The position numbers and the translations under genes are program-made. Shown here piece by piece: positions 3,382-58,226 of a DNA stretch of 64,000 bases (positions within the stretch are counted from its first letter, which is position 1; each line of letters starts with the position of its first letter). This DNA comes from an uncultured Actinomycetes bacterium. GTDB taxonomy: Bacteria; Actinomycetota; Acidimicrobiia; IMCC26256; DASPTH01. Below the pieces are notes generated by a model. It was given only the letters and a program-made list of their open reading frames with translations. It was not told where the DNA came from and did not search any database. The stretch spans positions 722,613 to 786,612 of the forward strand of contig CAVZKC010000004.1 in NCBI GenBank assembly GCA_963775795.1, given 5' to 3'.

Positions 3382-4496
3382 TCACACGCTCGTCCCCACC
3401 GCCTTCCCGACGAAGAACGTCACTGTCGCCACCGCCGCGCCGATCAGCGCCATGCGTAGTCCCGCGCGACCCGCGCGGCGACCGGTGAACACCGACGTGA
3501 CCGCGCCGGCGCCGAACAGCGCGAGGATCGAGAGCGTCGCCGCGACCACCGTCGGCGCCGTTCCGCTGCCGAAGAAGAACGGGACGACGGGGATCAGCGC
3601 GCCCAACCCGAACGCGACGAACGACGACACCGCCGCCACCCACGGCGAGCCCAGCTTCGTGGGATCCAGCCCGAGCTCCTCACCGCGAGGGTGTCGAGCG
3701 CGATGTCGTCGTTGGCCATGATCCGATCGACGAGCGCGCGTGCGGCCGTGGGCTCGATGCCCTTCGCCCGGTAGATCAGCTCGAGCTCGGCGCGCTCCTC
3801 CTCGGGGAACGCGCGGAACTCCTCGCGTTCGATGCGCAGCTCGTTCTCGTAGAGCTCGCGCTGCGAGCGCACCGAGATCCACTCCCCCGAGGCCATCGAG
3901 AAAGCGCCGGCGACGAGCCCCGCGATGCCGGCCAGGAGCACGATGCTGTTGTCGGTGGTACCCCCGGCGATGCCCATGACCAGCGAGAAGTTGGAGACGA
4001 GCCCGTCGTTGACCCCGAACACCGTGGCGCGCAGCGCGCCCCCCACGCCCGCCCGGTGCCGCCCCTCGGAGCGGGCGATGCGCCCGCCGGCGGGGATCCC
4101 CTGCATCGCCGCGATCGTGCGACCGGCAGCCTGCTCCTGTGCAGCCATCGCGTCGGTGGCCTCGTCGTCTTCCCGGTAGCGCCCCGCCTCGGCCGCTTCG
4201 GTCCGCAGCATGATCGGAAGCACGGCTTCGGTGCCGAAGCGGCGAGCGAGCGCGCAGAGCACCTTGACGCGAAACGGCGTGCGCGGCCGCACAGTCTCCT
4301 CCCCCGCGGCGCGCAGCAGACCGGCCCAGTGCTCGGCATGGCGCTCCTCGGCTGCCGCGAGCTGGAGGAAGACGCCGCGGCGCGAGTCGTCCGCGTAGCG
4401 CGCGAGACCGCGGTAGAGCTCACCACCGGCGATCTCGTCCGCCCACATCTCGTGGATGTGCGCGAGACGCTTGCGCTCGGTCGGATGCGTCGTCAT
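3382..4496 (-). pseudogene. ferritin/rubrerythrin-like domain fused to a VIT1/CCC1-family iron/manganese transporter, frame-disrupted as assembled
   Basis: Two track ORFs lie in different minus frames. ORF 3594..4496 carries AAEERHAEHWAGLL, then GALRATVFGVNDGLVSNFSLVMG, and ends at DIALDTLA. ORF 3382..3882 carries GEELGLDPTKLGSPWVAAVSSFVAFGLGALIPVVPFFF and the last TM helices. The frames meet at about 3683-3690. Confidence 0.8.
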
Positions 4497-4535
4497 CGGC
4501 GCAACGGTACGCCCTCCACCGCGCGACGGACGGGC

Positions 4536-5321
4536 TCAGTACCCGACGTCGGAGAGGCAGAGCCCGTGGGCCGGCGCGACCGACCCTGCGGCGGCCCGGT
4601 CGCATGATCGCAGGATTCCCAGCACGTCACCGGGGCGGAGCCGGCCGGTCCCCACGTCGACGAGCGTCCCCACGATCGAGCGCACCATCTGCCAGCAGAA
4701 CGCGCTCGCCCTGATCTCGTAGTGGAGCACCCCGTCGCCTTCGTCGTGCCAGCACGAGTCGAGGACCCTCCGGACCGTGGTGGAGCCCTCGGGACCCTTG
4801 CGGCAGAAGCTCGCGAAGTCGTGCTCGCCGAGGAACGGGTCGGCGCCGAGGCGCAGCAGACGCAGGTCGAGCGGCTCGCGGACCCACCACGCGTACCGCG
4901 CCCGGAACGGATCCGGGTCGCGGCGGTTGACGATCGTGTAGCGGTAGGCGCGCCAACGCGCGTCGTGACGGGCATCGAACCCTCGGTCGACGAGGACGGC
5001 CTCCCGCGCGACGACCTCGGGGCCGAGCTGGCCGTTCACCGCGCGGCGGACCGCATCCGCGTCCGTCGAGGCAGGCACCGGAGCGCTCACGACCTGACCC
5101 CACGCGTGGACCCCGGCGTCGGTGCGGCCCGCGCACGAGAGCTCGACGGGGGCGCCGACCACCCGCGAGATCACGTCGGTGAGCACGCCCGCGACCGTGC
5201 GGACGTCGGGCTGCGCGGCAAAGCCGTGGAATTCGGTTCCGTCGTATGCGATCGTCAGGCGGAGCGCCGCCGTGCCGCTCGACTCCGCCGCGGGGGCGTC
5301 GCCGAACGGCAGCTCGTTCAC
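4536..5321 (-). CDS. truA: tRNA pseudouridine(38-40) synthase
   Basis: Track ORF of 261 aa. [16 protein letters not shown] and the catalytic-Asp motif GRTDAGVHA are present. It overlaps the rplQ stop by 4 nt. Confidence 0.9.
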
Positions 5322-5668
5322 ACCAGCTCGACGCGCGCCATGGGCGCGTTGTCACCGGGGCGGGGACCGAGCTTCAAGATGCGTAGGTAGCCGCCGCTGC
5401 GATCCGCGTAGCGCGGGCCGATCTCCGCGAAGAGCTTGTGGGTGACGTCTTGATCGTGGATCTTCGCGATCACCTGGCGGCGCTGGTGCACGCCTCCGGC
5501 CTTCGCCTTGGTGATGAGCCGCTCGGCGTAGGGACGGAGCGCCTTCGCCTTCGGCACGGTGGTCACGAGGTACCCCGCTTCGAACAGGTGCGCGGCGAGG
5601 TTCGCCATCACCAGGCGCTGGTGGGCAGGGTCGCGCCCGAACCGTGGACCCTTCTTCGGCGTCGGCAT
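5318..5668 (-). CDS. rplQ: 50S ribosomal protein bL17
   Basis: Track ORF of 116 aa with [19 protein letters not shown] and [25 protein letters not shown]. It follows rpoA. Confidence 0.95.
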
Positions 5669-5670
5669 CG

Positions 5671-6603
5671 CTACTCCTTCACCCGCAGCGCCAGCCCGCG
5701 CTCGTCGAGCTTCTGGAGCACCTCTTCGAGCGACTTCGAGCCGAAGTTGGTGATCGCGAGCAGATCGTCCTCAGTCTTCTGGACGAGCTGGCCGATCGTG
5801 TCGACGCGCGCCCGCTTGAGGCAGTTGCGCGGACGCTCCGAGAGCTCGAGCTCCTCGATGGGCAGCTCGAGATCGGGGGACGCCGTGGACGGGGCGACCT
5901 CGCCGAGCTCGAGGCCGCGCGGCTCGTCGCTCAGATCGGCGACCAGCCCCACCAGGGTGCGCAGCGTGTCGCCGGCCGACGACAGGGCGTCGCGCGGGGA
6001 GATCGACCCGTCGGTCTCGATCTCGAGGATGAGCTTGTCGTAATTCGTGGCCTGCTCGACGCGGGTCGGCTCCACCGAGAACGCGACGCGGCGAACCGGG
6101 GAGAAGATCGCGTCCACCGGGATCACGCCGATCGACGACGTGCGCTTGTTGCGCTCCGCCGAGAGGTAGCCCCGGCCCTGCTCGACGGTCACATCGAAGG
6201 CCAGCCGTCCCTTGGCGTTCACTGTCGCGAGGTGCAGCTCGGGGTTGAGAACTTCGACGTCGGCGGTCACCTGGATGTCGCCGGCCGTCACGTCGGACGG
6301 GCCGCGCTTGTCGAGCCGCAGGGTAACGGGCTCCTCGGAGCTGCAGCGCAGCACGAGGTCCTTCAAGTTGAGGATGAGGTCGGTGACGTCTTCCTTGACA
6401 CCGTCGATCACCGAGAACTCGTGCAACGCGTCGTCGAAGTGCACCTGCGTCACGGCCGCGCCCGGAATCGACGACAGGAGCGTGCGCCGAAGGCTGTTGC
6501 CGAGCGTGTGCCCGAATCCGGGCTCCAGCGGACCGATGGTGAACTGGCCGTGGTTTCCCTCGGCGTCGAGGACTTCGACCTGGGGACGTTGGATGATGAG
6601 CAT
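5671..6603 (-). CDS. rpoA: DNA-directed RNA polymerase subunit alpha
   Basis: Track ORF of 310 aa with [28 protein letters not shown] and the C-terminal domain [21 protein letters not shown]. Confidence 0.97.
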
Positions 6604-6674
6604 GCGATCTCGCCTCTGATCAAGAGCGGTGGTTGCGGCCCCGCGCTCGGCGCGTTGCCCTTACAGGAGGTGCC

Positions 6675-7696: not shown

Positions 7697-7723
7697 TGCT
7701 CGGTGTCCCCTTCTGTCGCGGTG

Positions 7724-8101: not shown

Positions 8102-8115
8102 GGGGTGACCTCTTC

Positions 8116-8229: not shown

Positions 8230-8241
8230 GGTGCTCCGGTG

Positions 8242-8475: not shown

Positions 8476-8488
8476 CTACCTCACTCCG

Positions 8489-10155: not shown

Positions 10156-10169
10156 GCGGGGTGGGATGC

Positions 10170-10586: not shown

Positions 10587-11790
10587 TCAGGAGCGGCGGA
10601 GGACGTGGGGGCCGAGCTCGGCGACGGAACGCGCGCCGAGGAGCGCCATGGTGCGCCGGACCTCGCCGTCGAGGATCTCGATCGCCCGGGCGACACCGCG
10701 CTCGCCCGCGGCGCCCAGACCGTAGAGGTACGCACGACCCACCATCGCCGCCTTGGCGCCGAGCGCGAGGGCGGTGACGACGTCGCTGCCGCGCCGAATG
10801 CCGCCGTCGAAGAGCACGTCCACGCGGTCGCCCACCGCTTCCACGATCTCGGGCAGCACGTCGAGCGTGGCGGGAGCCCGGTCGAGCTGGCGGCCGCCGT
10901 GGTTCGACACGACCACGCCGGCCACGCCCACGTCAGCTGCCTGCCGGGCGTCGGTGGCGGACATGATCCCCTTCAGCAGCATCGGACCGTCCCACTGCTC
11001 GAGCATCCACTCCACGTCGGACCACTCGACGCTCGGGTCGAACATCTGGTGGATCTGCTCCATCACGCTGACGGGCGCGGTCGGACCGATGGTCACGTTG
11101 GCGAACGAGACCGGCTCGGAGGTGAGGAAGCGCCACGACCACGTCGGGTGCAACACGCCGTTCAGCAGCGTGCGCGGCGACGGCGCAGGCGGAATTGTGA
11201 ATCCACTCCGCAGGTCACGCTCGCGCGCCCCGGACACCGGCACGTCGACGGTGAGCACCAGCACGTCGTAGCCCGCCGCGCGAGCGCGCTCAATGAGCTC
11301 CTTGGAGATCTCCCGATCGCGAGCGACGTAGAGCTGGAACCAACGCGTTCCGGTGGGCGCAACAGTCGCGACGTCCTCGATGGAGGTCGTAGCGACGGTG
11401 GAGAGCGTGTACGGAACACCGGCCGCGGCGGCCGCCCGTGCGACCGCCGACTCGCCCTCGAAGTGCACGAGACGCGAGAACCCCGTCGGCGCCAGCGCGA
11501 ACCCCGCCGGCGAGCCGCGCACCCAGCATCGCGGTCGACGGGTCGACCGCGTCGACGTCGACGAGGACCCTCGACACGAGCTCGACTCGGCGGAAGGCGT
11601 CGACGTTGCGGGCAAGCGTGATCTCGTCCTCCGAGCCGCCGTCCATGTAGCCGAACACGGCACGCGGCACCCGCCGCCGGGCCGCGCGGCGAAGGTCTTC
11701 GACGGTGTACGCGGAGGCGAGTGCCCGGTCGTCGGAGCGCACGGGCGGCACCTTCACCCGGAACAGCTCCCGCACTTCGCGCGCTCGCAT
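10587..11790 (-). pseudogene. FMN-dependent alpha-hydroxy-acid oxidase/dehydrogenase (LldD / lactate oxidase family), frame-disrupted as assembled
   Basis: The N-terminus starts at ATG 11790 (AGGAG upstream) in track ORF 11290..11850: RRRVPRAVFGYMDGGSEDEITLARN. The rest is in ORF 10587..11663: FALAPTGFSRLVHFEGESAVARAAAAAGVPYTLST, VVVSNHGGRQLD, DGGIRRGSDV. The frames meet at the C4/G4 run 11502-11505. Confidence 0.8.
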
Positions 11791-12794: not shown

Positions 12795-12802
12795 CGCGTC
12801 CG

Positions 12803-19775: not shown

Positions 19776-20696
19776 TCAGTCCTCGTCCCCGTGGAACTTT
19801 GGAGCCTCGTGGTGCTGCCGCGTGCGGCGCTCGATCTCCTCTTCCTCGGCCAGGAGACGCTCCAGCTCGGGGTCGGCCTCCTTGACGAGCGGGCTCGACT
19901 CCTCGCCCACCTCGTCGGGCGCGGTCTCCACCGGCGCGGCCTCGGCTGCCGGGCGCCGCCGGCCCCCGCCGGCGCTGACGACCCGGCGCGTCGGGCCCTG
20001 GCCCGACGTCTCGCCGACCGCCATGGCGGCCTCCTTCGAGATCTTGTCCTCGGCCGCCGACTTGTAGGGCAGGATCTCGCCCTTGTAGATCCAGACCTTC
20101 ACGCCGATGCGTCCGAACGTCGTGCGCGCCTCTGCCTGGCCGTAGTCGATGTCGGCCCGCAGCGTGTGGAGTGGCACGCGGCCTTCGCGGTACCACTCCT
20201 TGCGTGACATCTCTGCGCCGCCGAGCCGTCCGCTGCACTGGACCCGGATGCCTTGCGCGCCGGCCTTCATCGCCGTCTGCACGGCACGCTTCATCGCCCG
20301 GCGGAACGAGACGCGCCCGGTCAGCTGGTCGGCGACCCCCTGCGCGATCAGGGTGGCGTCGAGCTCGGGCTGCTTGATCTCCTGGATGTTGAAGTGGATC
20401 TTCGGGTTCCCGGTGATCTTGAGCAACCCGGCCCGGAGGCGATCCGCCTCCGCGCCCCGCCGCCCAATCACGATCCCGGGCCGCGCGGTGTAAACGTCGA
20501 CCCGCAACCGGTCACGCGTGCGCTCGATCTCGACGCGGCTCACCGCGGCCCGCTCCAGCTGGCGCTTCAGGTAGTCGCGGATCTTCCAGTCCTCGATCAG
20601 GCTCGTGCGGTACTCGTCGTCCTCGGCGAACCAGCGCGACTTCCAGTCGGTGGTGATCCCGAGCCGGAAACCGTAGGGATTGACCTTCTGGCCCAT
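19776..20696 (-). CDS. rpsC: 30S ribosomal protein uS3 with a long acidic C-terminal extension
   Basis: ATG 20696 lies inside the 651-aa track ORF 19776..21731. [23 protein letters not shown] and [31 protein letters not shown] are present. About 90 extra residues end in [24 protein letters not shown]. Confidence 0.95.
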
Positions 20697-21356
20697 TAGT
20701 GCTCCGATCCTTCGGTCTCGGCGCGCTCGTCGTCCTCGTCCGAATCGGCGGAGGCCTCGGCTTCGTCGATCTCGACCTCGGCCGGCTGCTCCGCTTCGTC
20801 CTCGTCGTGCGCCTCGACGAGGACGTCGGCCTCGTCGAGCACCTGACTCGTGATCGTGATCGTGATCGTGATCGTGATCGTGATCGTGATCGGCCGCCGC
20901 GGCACGACGCGATGCGGCGACTCGACGCCGACGGCTCACGCGTGACGGGCCGCCGGCTGCTGCCTCCCGCCGGCGCCGCCGCTCGAGCTCGTCGTCGCCG
21001 AACCGAGCGACCATGATCGTCACGTGACTGGTGCGCTTGCGGATGCGAGTGCCGCGGCCACGCGCCCGGGGCCGCCACCGCTTCATGGTGGGACCCTCGT
21101 CAGCGAACGCGCGCGACACGTAGAGCTCGTCCTCCGGGATGGAGTCGTTGTGCTCCGCGTTCGCGATCGCCGAGTCGAGCAGCTTCATCACCGCGTCGGC
21201 GGGGCCACGCTCGCAGAACCGGAGGATCTCGCGCGCCTCCACGACGTCCTTGCCGACGATGAGGCCCAGGACCTGGCGCACCTTGGTGGGTGACGTCCGG
21301 AAGTGCCGGAGCCGCGCGGCAGTCTCGCGTTCGGGAGCGACGGTGCGAGTTGCCAT
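20696..21356 (-). CDS. rplV: 50S ribosomal protein uL22, with core and acidic tail in different frames as assembled
   Basis: ATG 21356 forms a TGATG overlap with the rpsS stop. Core sequence: [29 protein letters not shown]...[14 protein letters not shown]. The tail [15 protein letters not shown](IT)7SQVLDEADV...ETEGSEH lies in the +1 frame. It ends at TAA 20698-20696, overlapping the rpsC ATG (TAATG). Confidence 0.8.
20851..20892 (-). repeat. perfect hexanucleotide microsatellite (TGATCG)7, equal to (GATCAC)7 on the coding strand
   Basis: Counted directly: seven tandem TGATCG units with no mismatch, each holding a GATC site. It lies inside the rplV 3' extension. Confidence 0.97.
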
Positions 21357-22773: not shown

Positions 22774-23483
22774 GCCACCTCACCTTCTCCCTGGTCGGTG
22801 GGCTCTTCCACCGCGACACTTTCCGAGGCGCCGTGCGCCGAGCCGCTGAAGTGGGCCACCGTTGCCTCGAGCGTCTCCTTGGTGAAGACGAGCCAGTCGT
22901 TCACGAGGACGTCGTAGGTGTTGAGCTCTTCGGGGATGACGAGTTGGACCCGCGCCCCGAGGTTGCGCAGCGACTTCCACACGGCTTCGTCGGTACGGGC
23001 GAGCACGACGAGCAGCCGCTCGTCCCGCTCCCCGGCCGTCCGCAGGCCGAGACCGCCCAACACACCGAGGCCGGCCTTGGTGCTCGGCGAGTCGAGACCC
23101 CATGAGTCGAGCACGAGCACCTTGTCGTCGGCGGCGCGGTCCGAGAGCGCGGAGCGCAACGCCAGACGGATCATCTTCTTGGGAGTGCGCTGGCGGTAGT
23201 CACGCGGCTTCGGGCCGTGAGCCACGCCGCCACCGCGCCAGTGCGGCGCGCGGATCGAGCCCTGCCGGGCCCGACCGGTGCCCTTCTGGCGCCACGGCTT
23301 CGCGCCGCCACCGGCGACCTCGGCGCGCGTCTTCGTGCTGTGTGTCCCGGCCCGGGCGGCGGCAAGCTGCGCAGTGACCACCTGGTGCATCACGGCCACG
23401 TTCGGCGTGATGCCGAACAGCTGGTCGGGCGCGTCGACGGTGCCCTTGCCCGCGCCCGTCGCAGACTTCACCGCGAGCTTCAT
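22770..23483 (-). CDS. rplD: 50S ribosomal protein uL4
   Basis: Track ORF of 237 aa with [37 protein letters not shown]. Confidence 0.95.
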
Positions 23484-24133
23484 GCGGGGCTCCCGGCGGG
23501 CTTCTTGACCGCGTTGCGCACGAAGACCAGGCCGCCGTTCGGCCCCGGCACCGCTCCCTTGATGAGTAGGAGGCCGCGCTCGGCGTCACCCTCGACGACC
23601 TCGAGGTTGAGTGTGGTGGTGCGGGCGTTCCCGTGCTGGCCGGCCATGCGCATGCCCTTGAACACCCGGGCGGGCGTGGCGCACGCGCCTATCGAGCCCG
23701 GCGACCGATGCTTCTTGTGGTTGCCGTGGCTGGCGCCCTGGCCCTTGAAGTTGTGGCGTTGCATCGCGCCCGTGAATCCCTTGCCCTTGCTGATCCCGGT
23801 CACGTCGACGCGCTCGCCGGCGGCGAACACGTCGGGGCCGATCACCTGTCCGACTTCAAAGCCGGCAAGGTCGTCGACCCGCAGCTCGGCGAGGTGGCGT
23901 GACGGCGGGGAATCCGCCTTCTTCAGGTGACCGAGCTCGGGCTTGCTGAGACGCTGCTGCTTCGTCTCGCCGAACGCGAGCTGCACGGCGGCGTATCCGT
24001 CGCGTTCGGGCGTCTTCAGCTGCACCACATGACACGGCCCGGCCTCGATCACCGTCACCGGGACGACGCGGTTCTCGCTGTCCCAGATCTGGGTCATACC
24101 GAGCTTGCGCCCGAGGATCCCCTTGGAAGGCAT
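23480..24133 (-). CDS. rplC: 50S ribosomal protein uL3
   Basis: ATG 24133 (AGGAA upstream) lies inside track ORF 23480..24313. [29 protein letters not shown] and [22 protein letters not shown] are present. Confidence 0.96.
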
Positions 24134-24439
24134 GGTCGTTCCTGGTCTTGTCGTGCGGCGTCTTCGCGCGCTCTGCTCACGCGAACGCTCCGCCCGGTAT
24201 GGACCCGGCGGAGCGGTGATCGGTTGTGCCGTGCGGTTCTGCGGACGGGGCCGCAGCCTGCGCGGACGTCGGTTGACGAAAGGTTCCGGACGGGTGCCGG
24301 ACAGCTGGGGCACACCGGCGAGCCCCGAAAGACTAGCGGCTGCCCTTCCGGGCCGCCAAGCCGGTGGTGGCTCAGTTTGGGGGGATCAGCAGTCGCCCTC
24401 GTACTCGCTGACGCGGACCTGGTTCGGTTCCGGGCCGGT

Positions 24440-24470
<31 letters not shown>

Positions 24471-24475
24471 GGATC

Positions 24476-25407
24476 ATGCTGCGATACGCGCGACCGCGCT
24501 TGGTCGTCCCGTACCCTCTCGCCGTGTCCACGTCCTACGTCACGCCCCCCGAAGGTTGGACCCGCGAGGACGCGGGTGGCGTGGGGGCGTTCGTCACGCG
24601 AGAGACGTTCCGAGCCCCCGACGGCGCGGTCGTCACGTGGACGTCACGCGAGCATCGCAAGCAGGCGGGCCAGCTCGACGTCGGTCGCGGATCCACGTGG
24701 TGGGCACCGTCAGCGCTGGGCTGGTGGATCGGAGTCCTCTTCGCCGTCGGCGCGGCGTGCTTCACCGTGGGCGCGACGCCGGGATTCGCCGATGCGGTCG
24801 GCGCGGACACCGACGCGGTCACGTTCTTCGTGGGGTCACTCTTCTTCACCACTGCGGCGTTGCTCCAATACCTCCAGACGGTCAACGCGCCCGCGCGCTC
24901 GACGCCGCCGGGGTCGACGAACGGTTCCGGTTCTGGGCGTGGGAACCCGGGCGCATCGACTGGACGTCGAGCTCGGTGCAGCTCCTGGGAACGGTCTTCT
25001 TCAACGTCACCACGTTCGCCGCGCTCGACGCGACGCTCTCGACGCAGCAGGCAGAGCGCCTGGTGTGGGTGCCCGACGCCGCCGGCTCAGTGTGCTTTCT
25101 CGTCGCCAGCTGGCTGGCGTGGACAGAGGTCGCGCACAGCTCGTGGGCTTTTCGGCCCCGCAGCTTCTCGTGGTGGGTCGCGGGGCTGAACCTGCTGGGG
25201 TCCGTCGCCTTCGGCCTTGCGGCCGGCGCGTCGTTCATCGTGCCGACGACGGGCGAGCCGCGCAACGTCGATCTCGTGAACCTGGGCACCGCGATCGGTG
25301 GCCTGTGCTTCTTCGTCGGCGCGCTGTTGCTGCTCCCGGAACGCACCCGCGTCGCGCCGGTAAGAATGCACCCGACCAAGGAGGCCACCCGTGGCGCTGC
25401 ACCGTAA
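24476..25407 (+). pseudogene. integral membrane protein built from three 2-TM repeat units (YrhK-like?), frame-disrupted as assembled
   Basis: Frame a (track ORF 23927..25189, ATG 24476): STWWAPSALGWWIGVLFAVGAACFTVGA...FFVGSLFFTTAALLQYLQTVNAP. Frame b (ORF 24556..25407): FRFWAWEPGRIDWTSSSVQLLGTVFFNVTTFAAL...FSWWVAGLNLLGSVAFGLAAG...GLCFFVGALLLLPER. The frames meet near the G4 run 24910-24913. The family name is a guess from the motif pattern. Confidence 0.6.
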
Positions 25408-26776
25408 GACCGACGACGACACGCCGATCGAGCTCAACCCGATGTACTCCCAGCAGGGCGAGACGGTGCACGCTCCCCGCCACGCCCTGCCCAAGCACGA
25501 GCTCGATCCCGACGTCGCCTACCAGCTCCTCCACGACGAGCTGATGCTCGACGGCAACTCACGTCTCAACCTGGCCACATTCGTGACCACGTGGATGGAG
25601 CCGCAGGCGCAACGGCTCATGGCCGAGACGTTCGACAAGAACATGATCGACAAGGACGAGTACCCGCGCACCGCCGAGATCGAGCTGCGCTGTGTCAACA
25701 TGCTCAGCCGCCTGTGGAACTCACCCAGCTCCGAGGAGGCCACCGGCACGTCGACCACCGGGTCGAGCGAAGCCGCCATGCTCGGTGGGATGGCCCTGAA
25801 GTGGCGCTGGCGGGACCGTCAGCGAGCGGCCGGCAAGCCCACGGACCGTCCCAACATGGTGATGGGCGCCAACGTCCAGGTGTGCTGGGAGAAGTTCTGC
25901 CGCTACTGGGACGTCGAGGCGCGGCTGGTGCCGATGGAAGGGGACCGCTACCACCTCACCGCCGAGGCCGCGATCCCGCACTGCGACGAGAACACCATCG
26001 GCGTCGTGCCTGTCCTCGGGTCCACGTTCGACGGGAGCTACGAGCCGGTGGCGGAGATCTGCGCGGCGCTCGACACGCTCCAGGCCGACACCGGCCTCGA
26101 CGTCCCCGTGCACGTCGACGCGGCGTCGGGCGGATTCATCGCCCCGTTCCTCGATCCCGACATCGTGTGGGACTTCCGTCTTCCCCGGGTACAGTCGATC
26201 AACACCTCGGGGCACAAGTACGGGCTCGTCTACCCGGGCGTCGGCTGGGTGATCTGGCGCAATCCCGACGCTCTGCCGCAGGACCTCGTGTTCGACGTGA
26301 ACTACCTCGGCGGCGACATGCCCACCTTCGCGCTGAACTTCTCACGGCCGGGGAACCAGATCGCCGCGCAGTACTACAACTTCCTCCGCCTCGGGTTCGA
26401 GGGATACCAGCGCGTACAGCAGGCGTCGCGAGACGTCGCGCGCTACCTGGCCGACTCGATCGCGGGCATCGAGCCGTTCGAGCTGATCACCGATGGGAGC
26501 GAGCTCCCGGTGTTCGCGTTCACGATCAACCGGGACATCACGAACTGGTCGGTGTTCGACCTCTCCGAGCGCTTGCGCGACCGCGGCTGGTTGGTGCCGG
26601 CGTACAGCTTCCCCGAGAACCGCCAGGACCTCACGGCGTTGCGAATCGTCATCCGCAACGGCTTCTCGCGCGACCTCGCCGAGCTGTTGCTCGCCGACCT
26701 CAAGCGACACGTCGCCTACTTCGACCGCCTCACCTCCCCGCTTCCCGGCGACGGCAAGGCCAGCTTCAGCCACTGA
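25391..26776 (+). CDS. gadB: glutamate decarboxylase (PLP-dependent)
   Basis: Track ORF of 461 aa with a GTG start. [30 protein letters not shown] and the PLP-lysine motif [22 protein letters not shown] are present. Confidence 0.93.
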
Positions 26777-26823
26777 CCGCGGCTGCGGCGGCCCCAACCC
26801 CCCAGAGCCGACGGTCCGCGCGC

Positions 26824-26848
26824 GCGGCAGCATCGCCGCGGCTGCCGC
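26824..26848. terminator. GC hairpin between convergent gadB and rpsJ (candidate bidirectional terminator)
   Basis: GCGGCAGC-N9-GCTGCCGC, an 8-bp stem. It lies 48 nt after the gadB stop and 29 nt after the rpsJ stop. There is no clear U-tract on either strand. Confidence 0.3.
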
Positions 26849-26876
26849 TCGGTCACGCCGCGAACGTTATCCCGGC

Positions 26877-27203
26877 TCAGACCTGCTGGATCTTGATCTC
26901 GATGTCGACGCCCGCAGGCAGGTCGAGGCGCTGGAGCGACTCGACCGTCTTGCTCGTCGGCTCGACGATGTCGAGGAGGCGCTTGTGGATCCTCATCTCG
27001 AAGTGCTCGCGCGAGTCCTTGTCGACGTGGGGTGAGCGCACGACGCAGTAGCGACGGATCTCGGTCGGGAGCGGCACGGGACCACGGACCTTCGCCTGGG
27101 TCCGCACGACGGTCTCGACGATCTTCTTCGTCGACTGGTCGATGATCTCGTGGTCGTAGGCCTTGAGCCGGATCCGGATCTTCTGACCCTTGGAATCTGC
27201 CAT
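26877..27203 (-). CDS. rpsJ: 30S ribosomal protein uS10
   Basis: Track ORF of 108 aa with [60 protein letters not shown]. Confidence 0.97.
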
Positions 27204-30582: not shown

Positions 30583-30616
30583 CAGCTCAACTCTCCTGAC
30601 ACTGCGTTCATCTCTG

Positions 30617-30636
30617 TTCTCTTCTCTTCTCTTCTC
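30617..30636 (-). repeat. pentanucleotide repeat (TTCTC)4, equal to (GAGAA)4 on the mRNA strand, in the fusA 5' leader
   Basis: Four perfect units inside a 26-nt all-pyrimidine run (30617-30642). It lies 35-60 nt upstream of the fusA ATG. Confidence 0.9.
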
Positions 30637-30884
30637 TCCCCCGACAAGTGGTTGCGCACGGGCGCTCCGTACGCGCCCCATCAAGCCCGACGCCGAGCGC
30701 AGCGAGGCGGAGGACCGCCGGTCACGCTGCGGGCCCTTGGCGCCCGCCGGTGAGACCCGGCCCGGTGAGCCGGTTCCCGCCGGAGGCGGGAATTGCAGGG
30801 CTCATCCGGAACAAGGGCGCCAGCCGGCAAGCCGGAGCCGGACCCCGCGCGACTAGCGCGACAGCGTGAGACGAGACATACGCA

Positions 30885-40126: not shown

Positions 40127-40142
40127 GTTCTTCTCTCTCCTG

Positions 40143-40828
40143 TTACTCGGACTCGGACTCGGACTCGGATTCGGACTCGGATTCGGGGGTGGCTTCCGCC
40201 TCGGGGGCGGGCTCGGCCTCGGCGGCAGGTCGGGCTCGGCCTCGGCGGTGGGCTCGGCTCCAGCCGCGGGCTCGGCAGGTGCGGCAGCCTCGCCGCTCGC
40301 GACTCGCTGGTCGATCAGCGCCTGCACGCCGTAGGCGAGGTTGCGCGTGAACGCTTGGAACAGTCCCGCCGCCTTCGTGAGCGGCGCCTGGAAGGTGCCC
40401 GCGATCTGCGCGAGCAGCACGTCGCGCGGCGCCACGTCCGCCAGCGTGTCCAGCTCAGCTGCGGTGAGGACCCGCGACCCGAGGAGGCCCGCCTTGAGGA
40501 CGAGCGCAGGATTGCTCTTGCCAAAGTCCCGCAGCGCCTTCGCGGCCGGCACGGCGTCACCCCGCACGAAGGCGAGCGCCACCGGGCCCTCGAACATGCC
40601 GTCGAGACCCTCGACCCCGGCCTCGTCGATCGCCCGGCGCGCCAGCGTGTTCTTGAACACCTTGTACTCGGTACCGGTCGGGCGCAGGCTGGCGCGCAGC
40701 GCGGCCAACTCGGAAACCGTGAGGCCCCGATACTCGGTGAGCACGGTCGCGTCGGACTCCGCCAACTTGGCCCGGATCTCCTCGACGACCGCGACCTTGC
40801 CCGGTCTCGCGGCAGTTTCTCTTGCCAT
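40143..40828 (-). CDS. rplJ: 50S ribosomal protein uL10, with core and acidic (Ser-Glu)n tail in different frames as assembled
   Basis: ATG 40828. Core: [39 protein letters not shown]...[10 protein letters not shown]. The tail [28 protein letters not shown] lies in the -1 frame. It ends at TAA 40145-40143, followed by CAGGAGAGAGAAGAAC and the rplL ATG. Confidence 0.85.
40146..40187 (-). repeat. imperfect hexanucleotide microsatellite (CTCGGA)7, equal to (TCCGAG)n on the coding strand
   Basis: Units are ctcgga x4, ttcgga, ctcgga, ttcggg. It starts directly after the rplJ tail-frame stop codon and encodes (Ser-Glu)n in that frame. Confidence 0.92.
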
Positions 40829-42238: not shown

Positions 42239-42377
42239 CTCTTTGCACTCGCTCTCTGCGAGCCGGGATACCCGGCTCGCGGTCGTTCGCTCGTTGGCGA
42301 GCAACTCGCCCGGCTTCGCCGGGCTCGTCGCCGCTCGCGTACGCCTCGTGGTTACTTCACCGTTGCTTGCGGACCTT

Positions 42378-43127
42378 CTACAGCTTTGCTACTTGGCCGA
42401 GCTCGAGCTCGACGGGGGTCTCACGGCCGAAGATGTTGACGAGCACCGTGAGTTTCGATCGGGCAACGTCGATGTCGGAGATCACCCCGTTGAAGTCGGC
42501 GAACGGCCCCGTCGTCACGCGCACCTGCTCGGCCACGTCGAACTCGAGGCGAGGGCGCGCCTTCTTCTCGGGGCGCTCCTCCTCTTTCCCACCGCTGCCG
42601 AGGACATCTTCGACCTCGCGCCGAGACAACGGGGTCGGACGAGCGCCGTTGCCGACGAAGCCGGTCACGCCCGGGGTGTTGCGCACGACGTACCAGGAGT
42701 CGTCGTCGAGGTCCATGCGCACGTACAGGTAGCCGGGGAACAGCTTCTTCTGCACCACGACCTTGCGGCCGCCCTTGAACTCGATGACGTCTTCCATCGG
42801 GATGATCACGTCGAAGATGCGCTCCTCGACGTTCATCGACCGGACGCGGCTGGCGAGGTTCTGCTTCACCTTGTTCTCGTAGCCCGCGTACGTGTGCACG
42901 ACGTACCACGCACCCGACTGGTCGAACGGGCTGGGCTCGCGCGGGGTGTCGTCGGCCTCCTCGACGATGTCGAGCAGCTCGGCGTCCGCCAGGCTGGGCT
43001 CGACGACGACCTCCTCCAACACGGCCTCGACCTCACCGTCGGCCTCGAACACGGCGTCCTCCTCGACGACCTCGGTCGACTCGATCTCGAGTTCGGGCTC
43101 ACTGTCAGAAGGGTTCAAGTCGTCCAT
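42378..43127 (-). CDS. nusG: transcription termination/antitermination factor NusG (acidic N-terminal extension)
   Basis: Track ORF of 249 aa. The NGN domain starts at [20 protein letters not shown]. The KOW region is [18 protein letters not shown]. Confidence 0.95.
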
Positions 43128-47573: not shown

Positions 47574-47649
47574 TGGTAGCGGTGGCGGGACTCGAACCCG
47601 CGACGCCGCGATTATGAGCCGCGTGCTCTGCCATCTGAGCTACACCGCC
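47574..47649 (-). tRNA. tRNA-Met (anticodon CAT, elongator type)
   Basis: The reverse complement is GGCGGTGTAGCTCAGATGGCAGAGCACGCGGCTCATAATCGCGGCGTCGCGGGTTCGAGTCCCGCCACCGCTACCA. It is the only one of the four tRNAs with an encoded 3' CCA. The anticodon stem lacks the three G-C pairs of initiator tRNAs. Confidence 0.92.
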
Positions 47650-47711
47650 TTGATGATTCCTCGCTCACTGCGGGTCCGGGATACCCGGCCCCGCAGCCGT
47701 TCGCTCGCGCG

Positions 47712-47784
47712 AGCCCCCTTACGGACTTGAACCGTAGACCCCTTCCTTACCATGGAAGTGCTCTGCCAACTGAGCTAAGGGGGC
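47712..47784 (-). tRNA. tRNA-Thr (anticodon GGT)
   Basis: The reverse complement is GCCCCCTTAGCTCAGTTGGCAGAGCACTTCCATGGTAAGGAAGGGGTCTACGGTTCAAGTCCGTAAGGGGGCT. It folds as a clean cloverleaf. Confidence 0.95.
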
Positions 47785-48513: not shown

Positions 48514-49002
48514 ATGCCCACGTTCGACGTCGTCTCCGAGCTCGACCTGCAAGAGGTTCGCAACGCGGTCGACCAGGCCCAGCGCGAGGTCACGACCCGC
48601 TACGACTTCAAGAACACCGGCACCAGCGTGGAGCTCGGCGAGAAGAGCATCGAGCTCAACACCGAGTCAGAGTCGAGGCTCCAGGCCCTGACCCAGGTAC
48701 TCGAGGAGAAGCTCGTCCGCCGCAAGGTGTCGCTCAAGGCCCTCGCCTACGGGAAGGTCGAAGAGGCTTCGAAGGGGGCGGTGCGCCAGCAGATCGCGCT
48801 CAACGAGGGCATCAGCGCCGACAAGGCGAAGGAGATCGGCAGGTTCCTCAAGGATCTCGACCTGAAGGGCGTGTCACACCAGGTGCAGGGCGATCAGCTC
48901 CGGGTCAACGGCAAGAAGAAGGACGACCTCCAGGCGGCGATCACCGCGATGCGCGAGCACGACTTCGGGATCCCGCTGCAGTTCACGAACTTCCGTGACT
49001 AG
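48514..49002 (+). CDS. yajQ: YajQ-family (UPF0234) nucleotide-binding protein
   Basis: ATG 48514 (GGGAG upstream) lies inside track ORF 48430..49002. MPTFDVVSELDLQEVRNAVDQAQREVTTRYDFKNT is present. Confidence 0.9.
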   Translation: MPTFDVVSELDLQEVRNAVDQAQREVTTRYDFKNTGTSVELGEKSIELNTESESRLQALTQVLEEKLVRRKVSLKALAYGKVEEASKGAVRQQIALNEGISADKAKEIGRFLKDLDLKGVSHQVQGDQLRVNGKKKDDLQAAITAMREHDFGIPLQFTNFRD

Positions 49003-50380
49003 CGAGTGACGCCGAGGTCGCAGTCGGGCGCCAGCTCCGCGAGCCGGGCGTCCGCGGCGTCGGTCGCGTCCTGATCGTCGACGTCTGCCTGGTACCACGC
49101 GTCGATCACGGGTTCCGCCGCCGCCCGCGAGGCGAGGCACCGGGCACCGAGCGCGGGGGCGCCCTGGGCCATGAGGTACAACTCGAGGTCGTCGCGCCGG
49201 AACAGGAGCGTCACCGCATCGTCGAGCATGTCGTAGGACGGGACCGTCGCGCTCGGCGGCTCGCAGGCGGTGAACGTCACGAGCCGGCCCGTGGCGGACG
49301 CTTCGGACGCATCGCCGGGGAGCGCGTCTGTCCACGCGCCGAGCGCGTCGGCCAGACGGCCAGCGTCGTGGCGGGAGTCGTTGCGCACCGCTACCCGCAC
49401 GCAGTCCGTGTCGTCGCGGGTGAAGCCCACGTAGCGGTCGCCGCTCCACCCGTCGACCGCCTCGAGCGCATCGGTCGCGTCGATGCGCGAGGCCAAGACC
49501 AGGTAGAGGCTGAAGGCCCCGAAGTCGCCGGGGCGCCCGCGCCGCTGCTCGCCGTCGTCGAGCCGGGGGACGCGACGTGGCGGGGCCGCTCCCGGCGCTG
49601 GAACGCGACCGGGTCGACCGCCTGCTCCTCGGTGACGGGCGGATCGCGGTAGACGTCGTCGAGCGCGTCCTTCCCGTCCTGCTGTTCGGCCGCCGCGACG
49701 AGGAGTGGCCCGAACACGTAGGGCGCGGAGCTCACGACCTCCAGGATGGCGGGGCTCGCGGGATCGTCGCCCGCCTCGGCGGCCGCGGCCGGCGTCACGC
49801 CTTCGTCGAACGACGCGTAGTAGTCGTCCTGCTCCTTCCGGGAGAGCGTCGCCACGTACGCGTCCTCCACCGCGACCGCGTCGCCCTCGACGAGGGCGTC
49901 GAGCGCGAACACCTCCCCGCTGGTGTGCGCCCGAACGTCGAGCGCGTCGAGGTCGAAGTGCTGGTCCTGGAGCGCGTGCGTGAGCTCGTGCGCGACGGTG
50001 ACGCGGGTCTCGACGTCGTCGAGGTCGGTACCCCTGACGACCATGCGTTCACGTTCGGTGTCGTAGAAACCCACCACCGAGGCGTCGTCGACCGAGTTCT
50101 GCGCGGCGAGCAGGTCGACGTCGCCCGCGACGAGCCCGAGCGACCGGAGATCTGCCGCGAAGGCGTCCGCCTGGCGGCGGTCCCGGGCCGTGATCTTCTC
50201 GTCCGCACGGAGGGCTTTCAGGAACTGGTCGTCGGGAAGGAACTTCACCGGCACCGGGTGCTCGAAGTCGAGACCGCGCTCGCGTTCGACGAAGCGCGCG
50301 AGCTTGCTGACCCGCGGGTCCCAAGAATCGGGAGGAGAGGCTGCCACGGCCGGAACGGCAGTGACCGCCAGCACGACCAC
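48999..50380 (-). pseudogene. secreted zinc metalloprotease-like protein (HExxH), frame-disrupted as assembled
   Basis: Frame 1 (track ORF 49391..50380) has the signal-like VVVLAVTAVPAVAASPPD and the HExxH motif VAHELTHALQD. Frame 2 (ORF 48999..49496 and upstream) reads VPRLDDGEQRRGRPGDFGAFSLYLVLASRIDATDALEAVDGWSGDRYVGF. The junction is at about 49560-49600, which holds C4 and C5 runs. The true start may be the CTG at 50416. Confidence 0.65.
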
Positions 50381-51270: not shown

Positions 51271-51370
51271 CTCGTGGGCCCGGTCGGGCCCGCTGCCCCT
51301 GTAACGCTAGATCGTGGCCACGCGTTCCCTGCAGCGGAGCCGCGTCAGCCGACACGCTGGTCGGCCGGGA

Positions 51371-51724
51371 TCACCGGCACAATCCGAGTTCATCCTCGCC
51401 TGGATCGTCGCCTTGCTCCCCACGTACCTCGTGGCGAGGCCGGTTGCGCCGCGGGTAGCCGACAAGTAGCAGTCCGCACGCCAGCACGACGTCCATGACG
51501 CCGACTGCTGTACGCAGGGTCGACGGCTCCGTGAAGATGTTCCCCACACCGCTCACGAACAGGAACGAGGCCAGCAGCCACAGTGAGAGGAGGCTCCGAC
51601 GGATGACGAGCTCTCCGAGGCCGACGGCCGTTGCGATCGGGAACACGAGGAGTGGAACGACTCGGGGTGTGCTGTCTTGTTCCAGATAGGCCGCGACACT
51701 CCCGACGCAGAAGGCGGCAACCAT
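51371..51724 (-). CDS. small hypothetical membrane protein (about 4 TM)
   Basis: Track ORF 51371..51760. The start is ATG 51724 or the upstream start at 51760. The sequence is hydrophobic and I recognise no family. It sits between the HAD gene and htpX on the same strand. Confidence 0.4.
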   Translation of the reverse strand: MVAAFCVGSVAAYLEQDSTPRVVPLLVFPIATAVGLGELVIRRSLLSLWLLASFLFVSGVGNIFTEPSTLRTAVGVMDVVLACGLLLVGYPRRNRPRHEVRGEQGDDPGEDELGLCR

Positions 51725-51769
51725 TAGGCGTACAGCGACAGGAGGCGGCGCAGACCGCAAACGCGGGCG

Positions 51770-52261: not shown

Positions 52262-54216
<1,955 letters not shown>

Positions 54217-54378
54217 AGCGATTGCACCCCCACGCGTACGGACCGGGTGAGACGAGACGCTATACCCGGCCCCTGAGGCCTTGATCCGCTGGGGGCTCAG
54301 CCCGCCGAAACCGACTGAACTCGTGAGTTGCGGCCAGAAGCGCGGATAACTGTCATACCGGCATGAGATGCTCGATCG

Positions 54379-55533: not shown

Positions 55534-55540
55534 CCGACCG

Positions 55541-56737
55541 TCACGTACTCGCGCGGGTGCCGACCGAGAACACGAGCACCCGGTGCGCGCCGAGGCCGGC
55601 CGGGTCGAGGAGAGCCGCGGCCTCGCTGACACGGCTGCGATGCCGGAGCGCCTCCAGGTCGCCGACGTGCGCACGCTCGTCCCAGGCCGCGCGGGCCTCG
55701 TCGACGAGGTCGTCGATGCCGAGGCCGCGCAGCCAGTCCGCTTGCGATGCATTCGACTGGAGGGTCATGCCGGCGGTCGAAGCCGCGTGCACGAGGAACT
55801 CGACCGGCAGGTCGATCGTGATGTCCTGGCCACCAGGGTCGTCGAGCGGCGAGCCGCCCCGGTGGTGGCCCCGGTAGGTGCGGAGCCACCCGCTCACGCC
55901 CCGCTGCAGCAGTTCGGCGGCCGGAGCCGCGTAGTCGAGCACGATCAGCGCGCCGTCGCGCAGGATCTCGCCGCACTCCTGGAACCAGTCGCGCGCGGCC
56001 AGGGGAACTGGGAGGCGCGCGCCGACCGGCACCGCTTCCGCCCCCGCCGCCCCCGCCGCCAGGGCCGCCGCCACCTCGAGCTCGGGGGCGGCGGGCACCG
56101 TGACCTCCGAGAAGCCGCCGTCCTCCGACGCGACCCGCACCTCGGCCCAACCGTCCACCGTGCGCTCGACCACGCGGAACGGCAAGTTGTCGAGCAGCTC
56201 GTTGGCGAGCACGACTCCTGTGCACGCCACCGCCGGCAAGTCCGCGAGCGAGGTCGCGATCGGCCCGACACCGGTGGCGGGCGCCCGTCGCAGCTCGTCC
56301 CCCGGATCGTCGTCGGGATCGTGTGTCACCGGCCCCAGCGCGTCCTCGCCCGGCTCGAGCACGAGGAGCTCCCGCTGGGCTTCGCGGAGCTCGGCCGACC
56401 GTTCGACCAGTACGTAGCGCAGCGCGGGCGCGCACTCGGGACCCGCGGCGAGGAAATCGGCGGCCAGGCGGCCCCGGCCCGCGCCGGCCTCGACCACGAC
56501 GAACGGATCAGGTCGTTCGAGATCGCTCCAGACCCGATCGACCGCGCGGGCAACCAGTGCCCCGAACAGCGGACCGACCTCGGGGCTCGTGACGAAGTCG
56601 CGGCCCGCGCGTCCGGCGCCGTGCCCGCGCTCGAAGAAGCCGCCCGGTCCGTAGAGCGCGGTGTCGACGAAGGCGTCGAACGGGATCGCGCCCTCCCGCC
56701 GGATGCGCTCCACCAACAAGTCGGCGAGCGCGGTCAT
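55541..56737 (-). CDS. SAM-dependent methyltransferase, MidA / NDUFAF7 (DUF185, COG1565) family
   Basis: Track ORF of 398 aa with YGPGGFFERG, RDFVTSPEVGPLFGALVA and the SAM motif I VVVEAGAGRGRLAADFL. It is on the same strand as nuoN, 27 nt after its stop. Confidence 0.8.
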   Translation of the reverse strand: MTALADLLVERIRREGAIPFDAFVDTALYGPGGFFERGHGAGRAGRDFVTSPEVGPLFGALVARAVDRVWSDLERPDPFVVVEAGAGRGRLAADFLAAGPECAPALRYVLVERSAELREAQRELLVLEPGEDALGPVTHDPDDDPGDELRRAPATGVGPIATSLADLPAVACTGVVLANELLDNLPFRVVERTVDGWAEVRVASEDGGFSEVTVPAAPELEVAAALAAGAAGAEAVPVGARLPVPLAARDWFQECGEILRDGALIVLDYAAPAAELLQRGVSGWLRTYRGHHRGGSPLDDPGGQDITIDLPVEFLVHAASTAGMTLQSNASQADWLRGLGIDDLVDEARAAWDERAHVGDLEALRHRSRVSEAAALLDPAGLGAHRVLVFSVGTRAST

Positions 56738-56764
56738 CGTCCCGATCCAAACCGGACGGGTCGG

Positions 56765-58226
56765 CTACGCGGGGAACGCGAGCTCGCCGATGCGGGCGAA
56801 CACCTGCGGATAGACGCCGACCACGACCACCACCGCGGCGGTCAGGCCGAGCGCCACCGTGAGGGCTGCCGGCACGCGCACCGGGCCGGACTCGGCCGCC
56901 GGCTCGTGGAACCACATCTTGCGCGCCACCGCCGCGTAGTAGAAGAACGCGATGACCGAATTCACGGCCGCGACGACCCCGAGCACGACCGCCGGCGCGG
57001 TGTGCGCGTCGAACACCGCGCGGAACATCACGAACTTTGCGAACCAGCCGGCGAAGGGCGGTACTCCCGCGAGCGAGAACATGAAGATCGACATGAGCAC
57101 GGCCAACCCGGGCGCGGTCTGTGCCCAGGCCGGAGTACGAGTCGATCTCCGCCGAGTGGGTCCGGCGCGCCACCGCCATCACCACCGCGAACGCTCCCAG
57201 GTTCATCGCGCCGTAGATGAGGAGGTAGATGAGCACCGCTTCGAAGGCGGACTGCGCTGCCGACCCGTCACCCGCGACCGCGAGGGGAACGAGGATGAAC
57301 CCGCCCTGGGCGATCGAGGAGTAAGCGAGCATGCGCACGATGTTGGTCTGGCGCAACGCGACGAGGTTCCCGTACGTCATCGACGCGGCCGCCAGCACCC
57401 ACAGCATCGGCTCCCACGAGTCCTGCGACGGGAAGAAGCCCACCTTCACGATGGTGAGCAGCGCGACGAAGCCACCCGCCTTGGAGGCCACCGAGAGGAA
57501 GGCCGCCACCGGGGTCGGCGCACCCTCGTAGGTGTCCGGTGTCCAGAAGTGGAAGGGCACCGCGCTGATCTTGAAGGCGAAGCCGCCGATCGTGAGGAAG
57601 ATGGCCACGGCCAGTAGCGGGCTGGTGCCGACGTCGCGGATGTGCACGTTGATGGCGGTGAGGAGCGTCGAGCCCGCCTCTCCGTACACGAACGACATGC
57701 CGTAGAGCATCACCGCGGTGGACAGCACGCCGATCAGGAAGTACTTGATCGCGGCCTCGTTGGATTTCTCGTCGTGTTTGCGCCAACCGGCGAGCACGAA
57801 CGTCGGCAACGTGATCGTCTCCAGCGCCACGAAGATCGAGATCAGGTCGCGGGCCGACGCCATGACCACCAGCCCGAGCACCGAGGTCAGGAGCAGGAAG
57901 TAGAACTCGCCCTGGTAGTAGTCGCCTTCGCCGATGTAGTCGCTCGACATCAGGAGCGCGACGTAGGCGACCACGAGGAAGAAGCCCTGGAAGGCGAGGG
58001 CGTATTCGTCGACGACGAACCCGCCGTGGAACATCACGCGCGTCGACCCGTCGGCCGCGAGCGTGATCACCGGGATCAGGGCCGCGAGGACGCCGACGGA
58101 CGCGAGGCGCGACGACGCGAAACGCGACCGCTCCGGCCAGACGAGGTCGGCCACGAGCACGACCAGCGCCGCGACGGAGAGGATGATCTCCGGCGCGAAC
58201 GCGTGGAAGTCGATCGATGGAGTCAC
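56765..58226 (-). pseudogene. nuoN: NADH-quinone oxidoreductase subunit N, frame-disrupted as assembled
   Basis: GTG 58226 abuts the nuoM stop. Track ORF 56508..58226 is NuoN-like up to AEIDSYSGLG and then turns into Arg-rich nonsense. The missing C-terminal helices, (QTAPGL)AVLMSIFMFSLAGVPPFAGWFAKFVMF...VYPQVF, are in ORF 56765..57106. The junction is at about 57125-57135. Confidence 0.9.

Follow-up and report, generated by a model that had tools for sequence, protein, structure and literature searches.

Frame breaks in seven conserved genes of a 64,000-nt window are best explained as consensus indel errors in its assembly

Can a bacterial lineage tolerate or decode frequent changes of reading frame, or do such changes arise in the assembly of its genome? 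The question is raised by a stretch of DNA of 64,000 nt (the whole stretch analysed, hereafter the window), in which a preliminary description, made from the letters alone, reported seven conserved genes that each change frame once. By comparison with near-identical contigs, we put at about 93% the probability that the seven breaks stem from indel errors in the consensus of the source assembly and not from biology. In the organism itself, we infer, all seven genes would be intact and normally translated.

Results

Seven genes change frame once

We searched the window for frame changes with a codon-usage Viterbi HMM trained on its long ORFs. The model gave seven same-strand frame switches without a stop codon, at 3679/3680, 11505/11506, 20934/20935, 24887/24888, 40134-40223, 49569/49570 and 57101/57102; these are exactly the seven split genes reported earlier, with no others. 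The two frames overlap open at each junction, which bears out the earlier statement that none carries a premature stop. No further broken gene was found among the ~75 coding segments of the window, each checked against its own in-frame stop, and rpoB, rpoC, fusA, acs and nuoL are uninterrupted, as had been described. The density of frame breaks is thus ~1 per 9 kb.

A full-length protein was regained in each of the seven genes after a single small edit. The indels measure 1 nt at six sites and 10 nt at rplV, and comprise four deletions and three insertions, the 10-nt rplV insertion likewise shifting the frame by +1; both the +1 and the -1 directions occur, as reported. The G/C runs that had been noted near several junctions proved a weak clue, as a run of at least 4 nt is present in 27% of all 40-nt windows of the stretch, and two of the seven indels lie inside a homopolymer (3 nt in the YrhK-like gene, 5 nt in the HExxH protease gene; none at the other five sites).

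Every site is intact in a near-identical contig

The preliminary description had proposed placing the indels to the base by comparison, and we did so for all seven sites. The references were five short JGI contigs from sample 3300081966 (98.8-99.8% identity) and two long contigs from ENA whose names follow the Flye style (99.2-99.6% and ~97% identity); apart from JGI L003, they differ from the window by 0.2-3% substitutions, and are thus close strains but strictly not the same molecule, which leaves a real strain-specific mutation at any single site a small formal probability. All seven sites are intact in at least one of these independent contigs: four in JGI 3300081966 (VIT1, L005; rplV, L003; rplJ, L001; HExxH, L170), six in contig_51745 of ENA ERZ25039533 (VIT1, lldD, rplV, YrhK-like, rplJ and nuoN) and two in contig_106812 of ENA ERZ25039520 (nuoN and rplJ). 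Six of the seven lesions are unique to the window, whereas the HExxH lesion occurs in three long-read contigs and is absent from the JGI contig. The ~22 kb over which the JGI contigs overlap the window hold 49 substitutions and four coding indels of a length not divisible by 3, and these four are exactly sites among the seven reported earlier. The original suggestion of single-base assembly errors thus stands, except that the rplV event spans 10 nt.

The long contig_51745 has breaks of its own in genes that are intact in the window: rplM, the VIT1 N-terminus (4399), rplO (14971), rplX (18328), rpoB (39047) and rplL (39882). Further breaks of its own lie in wzx (44832), a methyltransferase gene (56434), nuoN (56921) and nuoM (58573), and it carries a false acs-HAD fusion (52375) where acs and HAD are separate in the window. 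The window versions of the genes broken in contig_51745 are full-length by Pfam, and wherever the JGI contigs allow a test they support the intact form. Long-read contigs thus have their breaks at places of their own, at which the window reads through; this is the pattern that consensus errors would produce, and not a frame-decoding lineage. Comparing the window (~93% coding) with the ENA contig, we counted by hand ~17 coding and 4 intergenic indels of lengths not divisible by 3; genes hit include rpoB and members of the ribosomal protein and nuo sets. Frame-breaking indels are, therefore, not depleted in coding sequence, unlike real mutations under selection, which would be.

We considered rplO (14971) and acs/HAD (52375) as extra breaks in the window and rejected both, because the window's uL15 has its canonical C-terminus and a full PF00828 match, and L007 and JGI L170 show acs and HAD as separate genes. 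The errors at these two places, thus, sit in the ENA contig. Look-ups of nuoM, adk and the methyltransferase gene gave no matches. Nor was there a match to the window's broken forms when the GTDB species representatives were scanned for the exact pattern at the nuoN site, or when the 300-aa VIT1 ORF peculiar to the frameshift was sought as an exact entry in the assembly collection.

Single edits restore the VIT1, lldD, YrhK-like and nuoN genes

The ferritin-like/VIT1 gene (3382..4496, minus strand) lacks a C between 3683 and 3684 (CTCGCG[C]GTGAGG) that is present in both JGI L005 and ENA contig_51745 (L004). The repaired product is identical to that of the 371-aa JGI gene at 369/371 residues, and PF01988 runs continuously over the junction (positions 1-214/214). 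The gene for an FMN-dependent 2-hydroxyacid (L-lactate-type) dehydrogenase, lldD (10587..11790, minus strand), contains a surplus G at 11511 (GGCTC[G]CCGG); the ENA contig does not have this G and encodes 400 aa. After repair, 397/400 residues match the ENA protein, and FMN_dh is continuous over the junction (positions 1-349/350). The YrhK-like membrane protein gene (24377..25407, plus strand) reads C3 in the C-run 24890-24892, which should be C4; the ENA contig has CCCC there and a gene of 351 aa. The repaired protein matches at 343/351 residues, the remainder being a repeat-length difference, and gives a PF14145 match at residues 82-135. In nuoN (56765..58226, minus strand) a surplus base at 57122 (coding strand CTGGGC[A]CAGACC) is absent from both ENA L006 and L007, and repair makes the TIGR01770 NuoN match continuous over the junction (positions 2-471/472).

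The junctions first proposed for VIT1, rplJ, HExxH and nuoN agree with these placements, but the other three moved. Alignment with the near-identical contigs places the lldD indel at 11511 instead of in the G-run 11502-11505, and the YrhK-like indel lies at 24890-24892 rather than at about 24910. The rplV event, given as a single base at 20893-20935, is a 10-nt insertion at 20844-20853, on the 3' side of the (GATCAC)7 repeat.

Ribosomal protein domains are spared

This insertion in rplV (uL22; 20696..21356, minus strand) consists of the surplus 10 nt TCACGAGTCA and adjoins the 3' edge of (GATCAC)7, an (Asp-His)n repeat (tandem repeat at 20848-20892). The L22 domain is intact and the low-complexity acidic tail alone is out of frame, so that the ORF continues into rpsC. 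The 10 nt are absent from JGI L003 and ENA contig_51745 (L002), and the repaired protein matches both at 216/216 residues. L003 has 0 mismatches to the window over 3850 nt, yet differs by this indel. Among ~20 Acidimicrobiia relatives, chiefly short-read MAGs, most have the (HD)n repeat and the acidic tail in a single frame, which ends 2-5 nt before rpsC.

The rplJ gene (uL10; 40143..40828, minus strand) lacks a G between 40229 and 40230 (GAGCCCGA[G]CCTGCC), within an imperfect repeat of 18-nt period (repeats at 40145-40276). Here too the conserved domain, L10, is intact and a low-complexity acidic Pro/Glu/Ser tail alone changes frame, which fuses the ORF in frame to rplL. The G is present in JGI L001, where the gene is 222 aa long and matches the repaired protein at 219/222 residues. 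The gene is also intact in ENA L006 (235 aa) and L007 (214 aa); the net length difference between L006 and the window is 22 nt (3n+1). Of the three genes described earlier as indispensable (for uL22, uL10 and NuoN), the two that encode ribosomal proteins are affected in their acidic tails only.

Real strain-specific mutations are improbable

A rival reading is that the indels are real, and that the organism carries pseudogenes or truncated versions of the seven genes, as in reductive decay or in a mutator strain. We consider this improbable, even though the reference contigs are near-identical and not identical to the window, four of the genes (VIT1, lldD, YrhK-like and the HExxH protease) are probably dispensable, and one lesion, HExxH C5, is common to three long-read assemblies of ~97-99% identity, as an inherited mutation would be. 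Real mutations would leave uL22 running into uS3, uL10 fused to uL7/L12 and NuoN broken, with seven frame-breaking indels set against ~0.2% substitutions; L003 differs by the rplV indel despite having no substitutions over 3.85 kb, and the HExxH run is C6 in the JGI contig. Among long-read contigs, others have breaks in different essential genes (such as rpoB, rplL and rplX), so this class of assembly is error-prone. Pseudogene-rich reductive genomes spare ribosomal and core genes, and their pseudogenes gain further lesions and lose coding signal. The parts downstream of the indels, however, retain full coding signal and conserved residues. The window thus resembles reductive genomes of the Mycobacterium leprae type in its dense frame-disrupted genes, but differs in that core genes are hit, coding signal is kept on both sides and each site has an intact counterpart in sister assemblies.

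The HExxH lesion is shared by long-read contigs

The gene for an HExxH metallopeptidase-like surface protein of the Hvo_1808/DUF8575 type (48999..50380, minus strand) reads C5 in the C-run 49565-49569, which should be C6. JGI L170 (99.68% identical), retrieved via a look-up of the neighbouring M48 peptidase, has C6 and reads ...VASPRLDDGEQRRGRPGDFGAFSLYLVLASR... in a single frame, and the repaired protein aligns end to end with single-frame homologues of ~470 aa. A DNA-pattern scan of metagenome_contigs for a short-read version of the site gave no match, and a protein-guided scan gave only relatives of at most 43% identity. The part downstream of the indel keeps its coding signal and conserved residues; the ratio of synonymous to non-synonymous codon differences there is 7:8 for the true frame, against 4:12 for each of the control frames. 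This leans towards selection acting in the shifted frame, but the differences are too few for significance and the power is low.

C5 was likewise found in both ENA long-read contigs. Nearly all of the 13 other G/C runs of at least 6 nt called in the window agree, where covered, with other assemblies, so the shared C5 needs either a context-specific miscall or a real variant. Since the change recurs in three long-read assemblies, we read it as a context-dependent, reproducible undercall of C6 to C5 rather than a random error. It is doubtful, and in our view very unlikely, that C5 is genuine in the long-read populations and C6 in the JGI population, as a natural length polymorphism. Such a polymorphism would decide whether this secreted, metalloprotease-like surface protein is made at full length or truncated, and a -1 slip of tRNA-Pro on the C-run might offer some low-level rescue.

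The sites lack features of decoded frame changes

The remaining possibility, with which the preliminary description had contrasted assembly error, is that the lineage tolerates or decodes the shifts, by programmed ribosomal frameshifting, transcriptional slippage or general tolerance, and so makes full-length proteins. The stop-free junctions with overlapping open frames would allow this, and the C-run of the HExxH gene could in principle permit a -1 slip of P-site tRNA-Pro. A decoding signal, however, would be conserved, and every one of the shifts is missing from at least one near-identical contig; intact contigs at each site therefore count against decoding, and on this sequence comparison we regard it as effectively refuted. 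Programmed frameshift sites are conserved across orthologues, with a defined slippery sequence and a stimulator. Here, +1, -1 and 10-nt events are mixed, with no slippery heptamer (X XXY YYZ) at any of the seven sites and no shared motif. At the single site tested for a stimulatory structure, HExxH, the 106 nt downstream fold no better than shuffles (z = 0.15). Transcriptional slippage or a phase-variable homopolymer typically involves a tract of 7-9 nt or more, and the runs here (3-6 nt) are too short. The uL22 tail and the HExxH protein are, as noted, single-frame in most relatives and in the ~470-aa homologues, respectively. The junctions resemble known cases of programmed frameshifting (prfB +1, dnaX -1 and IS3-family transposases) in having two protein halves in overlapping open frames without a junction stop, but differ in that the shifts are not conserved, share no motif and, at HExxH, precede an ordinary downstream structure.

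Discussion

The source was most probably an unpolished long-read (Nanopore-type) metagenome assembly, of moderate or low coverage, from an uncultured member of the Acidimicrobiia. Among species-representative genomes, the nearest are Microflora Danica MAGs built from Nanopore reads only; Flye was used for their assembly, followed by a single Medaka round and no polishing with short reads (PMC12313526). It is documented that Nanopore assemblies carry residual indels which lead to frameshifted gene calls, a problem that the IDEEL score quantifies and proovframe-type tools correct, and bins below ~40-fold coverage need short-read polishing (PMC9262707).

Consensus indel errors would account for the seven sites as follows. 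Six would be 1-nt miscalls (3683/3684, 11511, 24890-24892, 40229/40230, 49565-49569 and 57122), the HExxH undercall among them, and the rplV event would be a miscall of 10 nt where a perfect hexanucleotide tandem repeat ends. Such a pattern is like that of Nanopore consensus errors: isolated 1-nt indels at this density break conserved genes without introducing a stop where they lie, short-contig assemblies of the same population do not have them, each long-read assembly has different ones, and one reproducible homopolymer undercall and one messy tandem-repeat call are among them. It is unlike them in that most events lie outside homopolymers. With five of seven indels so placed, the window does not show the classic homopolymer signature, but fits generic low-coverage consensus error. 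Methylation motifs were also considered as a cause, since the rplV repeat contains GATC and several indels have CCGG nearby, but this was set aside as speculation: at 69% GC, CCGG is too frequent for such an association to be meaningful.

As a known artefact, the frame breaks would have no biological significance, but they are a practical warning to annotators of this genome. About 9% of the window's genes are miscalled, including those for uL22, uL10 and NuoN, and gene calls made on the assembly as it is would include truncated products and spurious fusions (uL22 into uS3; uL10 with uL7/L12). Any inference of pseudogene content, fused genes or recoding from such genomes first needs frameshift-aware annotation or short-read polishing. 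Artefacts from the sister ENA contigs are already present in the searched protein collection, for example an 815-aa acs-HAD "fusion" and a truncated 329-aa HExxH product (P0001).

Results

Seven genes are broken by a change of frame

We decoded the whole window with a seven-state Viterbi decoder (six frames plus non-coding) based on a codon log-odds model from long ORFs. Same-strand frame switches with no stop between them were found at 3679/3680, 11505/11506, 20934/20935, 24887/24888, 40134-40223, 49569/49570 and 57101/57102. These are the seven places where a preliminary description, made from the sequence alone, had claimed one frame change each, in the genes for a ferritin-like VIT1, lldD, rplV (uL22), a YrhK-like membrane protein, rplJ (uL10), an HExxH protease and nuoN. 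Three-frame views revealed both frames open across every junction, as had also been claimed, and the observation of seven frame changes is confirmed. A second check, of every coding segment against its in-frame stop, gave seven broken genes among ~75 coding segments; it otherwise flagged only ordinary C-terminal tails, those of truA, rplO and DUF222, and a small ORF that is ambiguous.

The window has a G+C content of 65-73% and carries on its minus strand the alpha, spc and S10 ribosomal operons, tuf-fusA-rpsG-rpsL, rpoC-rpoB, rplL-rplJ-rplA-rplK-nusG-secE and distal nuo genes. Its uS3 is 93-95% identical to those of uncultured Actinomycetes/Acidimicrobiia MAGs, and among species representatives the window comes closest to "MFD" (Microflora Danica) MAGs. 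The S10 operon is split (23480-27203): rpsJ (26877-27203) adjoins tuf, and between it and rplC (from about 24120 downward) stand two opposite-strand genes, encoding the YrhK-like protein and a 461-aa PLP-dependent decarboxylase, a layout also seen in ENA contig_51745. ARAGORN placed a tRNA-Thr(GGT) at 47711-47784, which is absent from the output of an Rfam gathering-threshold scan.

Each frame is intact in a near-identical assembly

By looking up the exact proteins of intact genes nearby, we retrieved near-identical contigs of other assemblies: ENA ERZ25039533 contig_51745 (594 kb; loci L002, L004, L006 and L169; 99.2-99.6% identity), ENA ERZ25039520 contig_106812 (435 kb; locus L007; about 97%) and five short contigs of JGI metagenome 3300081966 (L001, L003, L005, L168 and L170; 98.8-99.8%). 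Base-level alignment placed each event to the base, which corrected the positions first proposed for rplV, the YrhK-like gene and lldD. VIT1 lacks a C between 3683 and 3684 (frame intact in JGI and ENA), lldD has an extra G at 11511 (intact in ENA as a 400-aa gene), and the YrhK-like gene has CCC at 24890-24892 where CCCC is expected (intact in ENA). In rplJ a G is missing between 40229 and 40230; the frame is intact directly in JGI, and rplJ is also intact in both ENA contigs, with a net difference of 22 nt (3n+1) between contig_51745 and the window. NuoN has an extra base at 57122 (intact in both ENA contigs). In rplV an additional TCACGAGTCA occupies 20844-20853, where a perfect (GATCAC)7 repeat has its 3' edge; the gene is intact in JGI and ENA, and over 3850 nt this is the only difference between JGI L003 and the window. 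Single-base indels, as originally proposed, thus account for six sites, the rplV event being 10 nt. The HExxH gene has C5 at 49565-49569 instead of C6. The C5 is common to the window and both ENA contigs; only JGI L170 has C6, reading ...RHVASPRLDDGEQRRGRPGDFGAFSLYLVLASRIDATDALE in a single frame, and this is exactly the repair predicted beforehand from homologues of about 470 aa.

One edit per gene restored products that we compared with the reference genes: VIT1 matched at 369/371 residues, lldD at 397/400, uL10 at 219/222, uL22 at 216/216 (against two references) and the YrhK-like protein at 343/351, the rest being a Gly-Asp repeat-length difference. PF01988 became continuous in VIT1 (1-214/214), FMN_dh in lldD (1-349/350) and TIGR01770 in NuoN (2-471/472). 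The junction falls downstream of the conserved domain in both uL22 and uL10, and only acidic low-complexity tails are displaced.

Assembly error rather than recoding

These results support the reading that the seven frame changes are artefacts of assembly, as the preliminary description preferred, because at each site the intact frame is present in one or more independent near-identical assemblies. In addition, the errors are reciprocal: rplM, the VIT1 N-terminus, rplO, rplX, rpoB, rplL, wzx, a methyltransferase gene, nuoN (at a different site) and nuoM are broken in contig_51745 and intact in the window, where they are full-length by Pfam. Contig_51745 also carries a false acs-HAD fusion, and contig_106812 is even more fragmented. 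The JGI contigs agree with the intact version wherever they overlap. The window and the JGI contigs overlap over ~22 kb and differ there by 49 substitutions and by four coding indels whose length is not a multiple of 3; these four are exactly the reported sites covered, which further argues for artefact. Coding sequence shows no depletion of frame-breaking indels between the long-read contigs, and such indels strike rpoB and ribosomal protein genes, which would be impossible under selection.

The alternative, a lineage that decodes frame changes, is rejected. Besides the intact near-identical assemblies, no slippery motif is common to the seven contexts, both shift directions occur among them and one event is of 10 nt. 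At the HExxH C-run, the only run-type site, the RNA 3' of the run shows no better folding than shuffled sequences (z = 0.15).

The window assembly probably derives from Nanopore-type long reads, and the ENA contigs bear Flye-style names. Microflora Danica long-read MAGs were produced with R10.4.1-type flow cells, Guppy SUP and Flye --nano-hq, with one round of Medaka and without short-read polishing (PMC12313526). Indels left in Nanopore consensus sequences are documented to give rise to frameshifted gene calls, and polishing is needed for bins with less than about 40-fold coverage (PMC9262707). Of the seven indels here, only two lie inside homopolymers, and the G/C runs first offered as a clue are not above background, 27% of 40-nt windows containing such a run; this pattern is more in keeping with consensus error at low coverage than with classic homopolymer error. 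The HExxH C6-to-C5 call is common to three long-read assemblies, which independent random errors cannot explain, and its best reading is a miscall that depends on context. The sole residual biological possibility, a very improbable one, is a true C5 allele in the long-read populations.

The frame breaks are thus a known artefact, and their value is as a caution in annotating this genome and in using protein databases that already contain products of such broken genes. The public contig_51745 and contig_106812 have many breaks of their own (rpoB, rplL, rplX, rplO, rplM, nuoM, nuoN and acs among others), and artefactual gene calls on public long-read contigs include an 815-aa acs-HAD_PNKP fusion and a truncated 329-aa HExxH product (P0001, from a homologue search).

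Variation between near-identical strains

A strain-variable spot (51347-51766) lies between genes for an HAD phosphatase and an M48 (HtpX-like) peptidase. In the window it is about 419 nt, non-coding by the codon HMM, and holds a small hydrophobic ORF (51371-51760, minus); the segment is missing from both ENA contigs, and in JGI L170 its place is taken by about 786 nt of different sequence that cannot be aligned. A 27-nt hairpin-like insert (42305-42331; GCCCGGCTTCGCCGGGC core) just upstream of rplK is not in contig_51745, and nusG has a 90-nt in-frame length difference (43001-43092; 249 aa in the window versus 219 aa in JGI L168). Within 47574-47784, next to tRNA-Thr, the stretch 47654-47708 gives two alignments to the ENA and JGI contigs, which suggests that a short piece has been duplicated locally; intergenic indels of 1 nt at 47684 and 47689 also lie there.

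The uL22 C-terminal extension (20696-20935) comprises an Arg-rich segment, (Asp-His)n from (GATCAC)7 and a strongly acidic tail up to the rpsC start. This (HD)n and acidic-tail architecture recurs in most of ~20 Acidimicrobiia relatives (loci L008-L030, mainly short-read MAGs), where an Arg-rich segment, (His-Asp)n and an acidic stretch are read in a single frame with the stop 2-5 nt before rpsC. The tail is scrambled in a Nanopore MAG (L013) relative to a close short-read MAG (L014). Copy number of short tandem repeats varies between near-identical strains (24436-24470, 30613-30637 and 40145-40276): the YrhK-like gene has a 24-nt difference in the (GGCGAC)n Gly-Asp repeat at its 5' end, (GAGAA)5 upstream of fusA varies by 5 nt, and uL10 is 214, 222, 228 or 235 aa long in four assemblies, depending on the Ser/Glu/Pro repeats in its tail.
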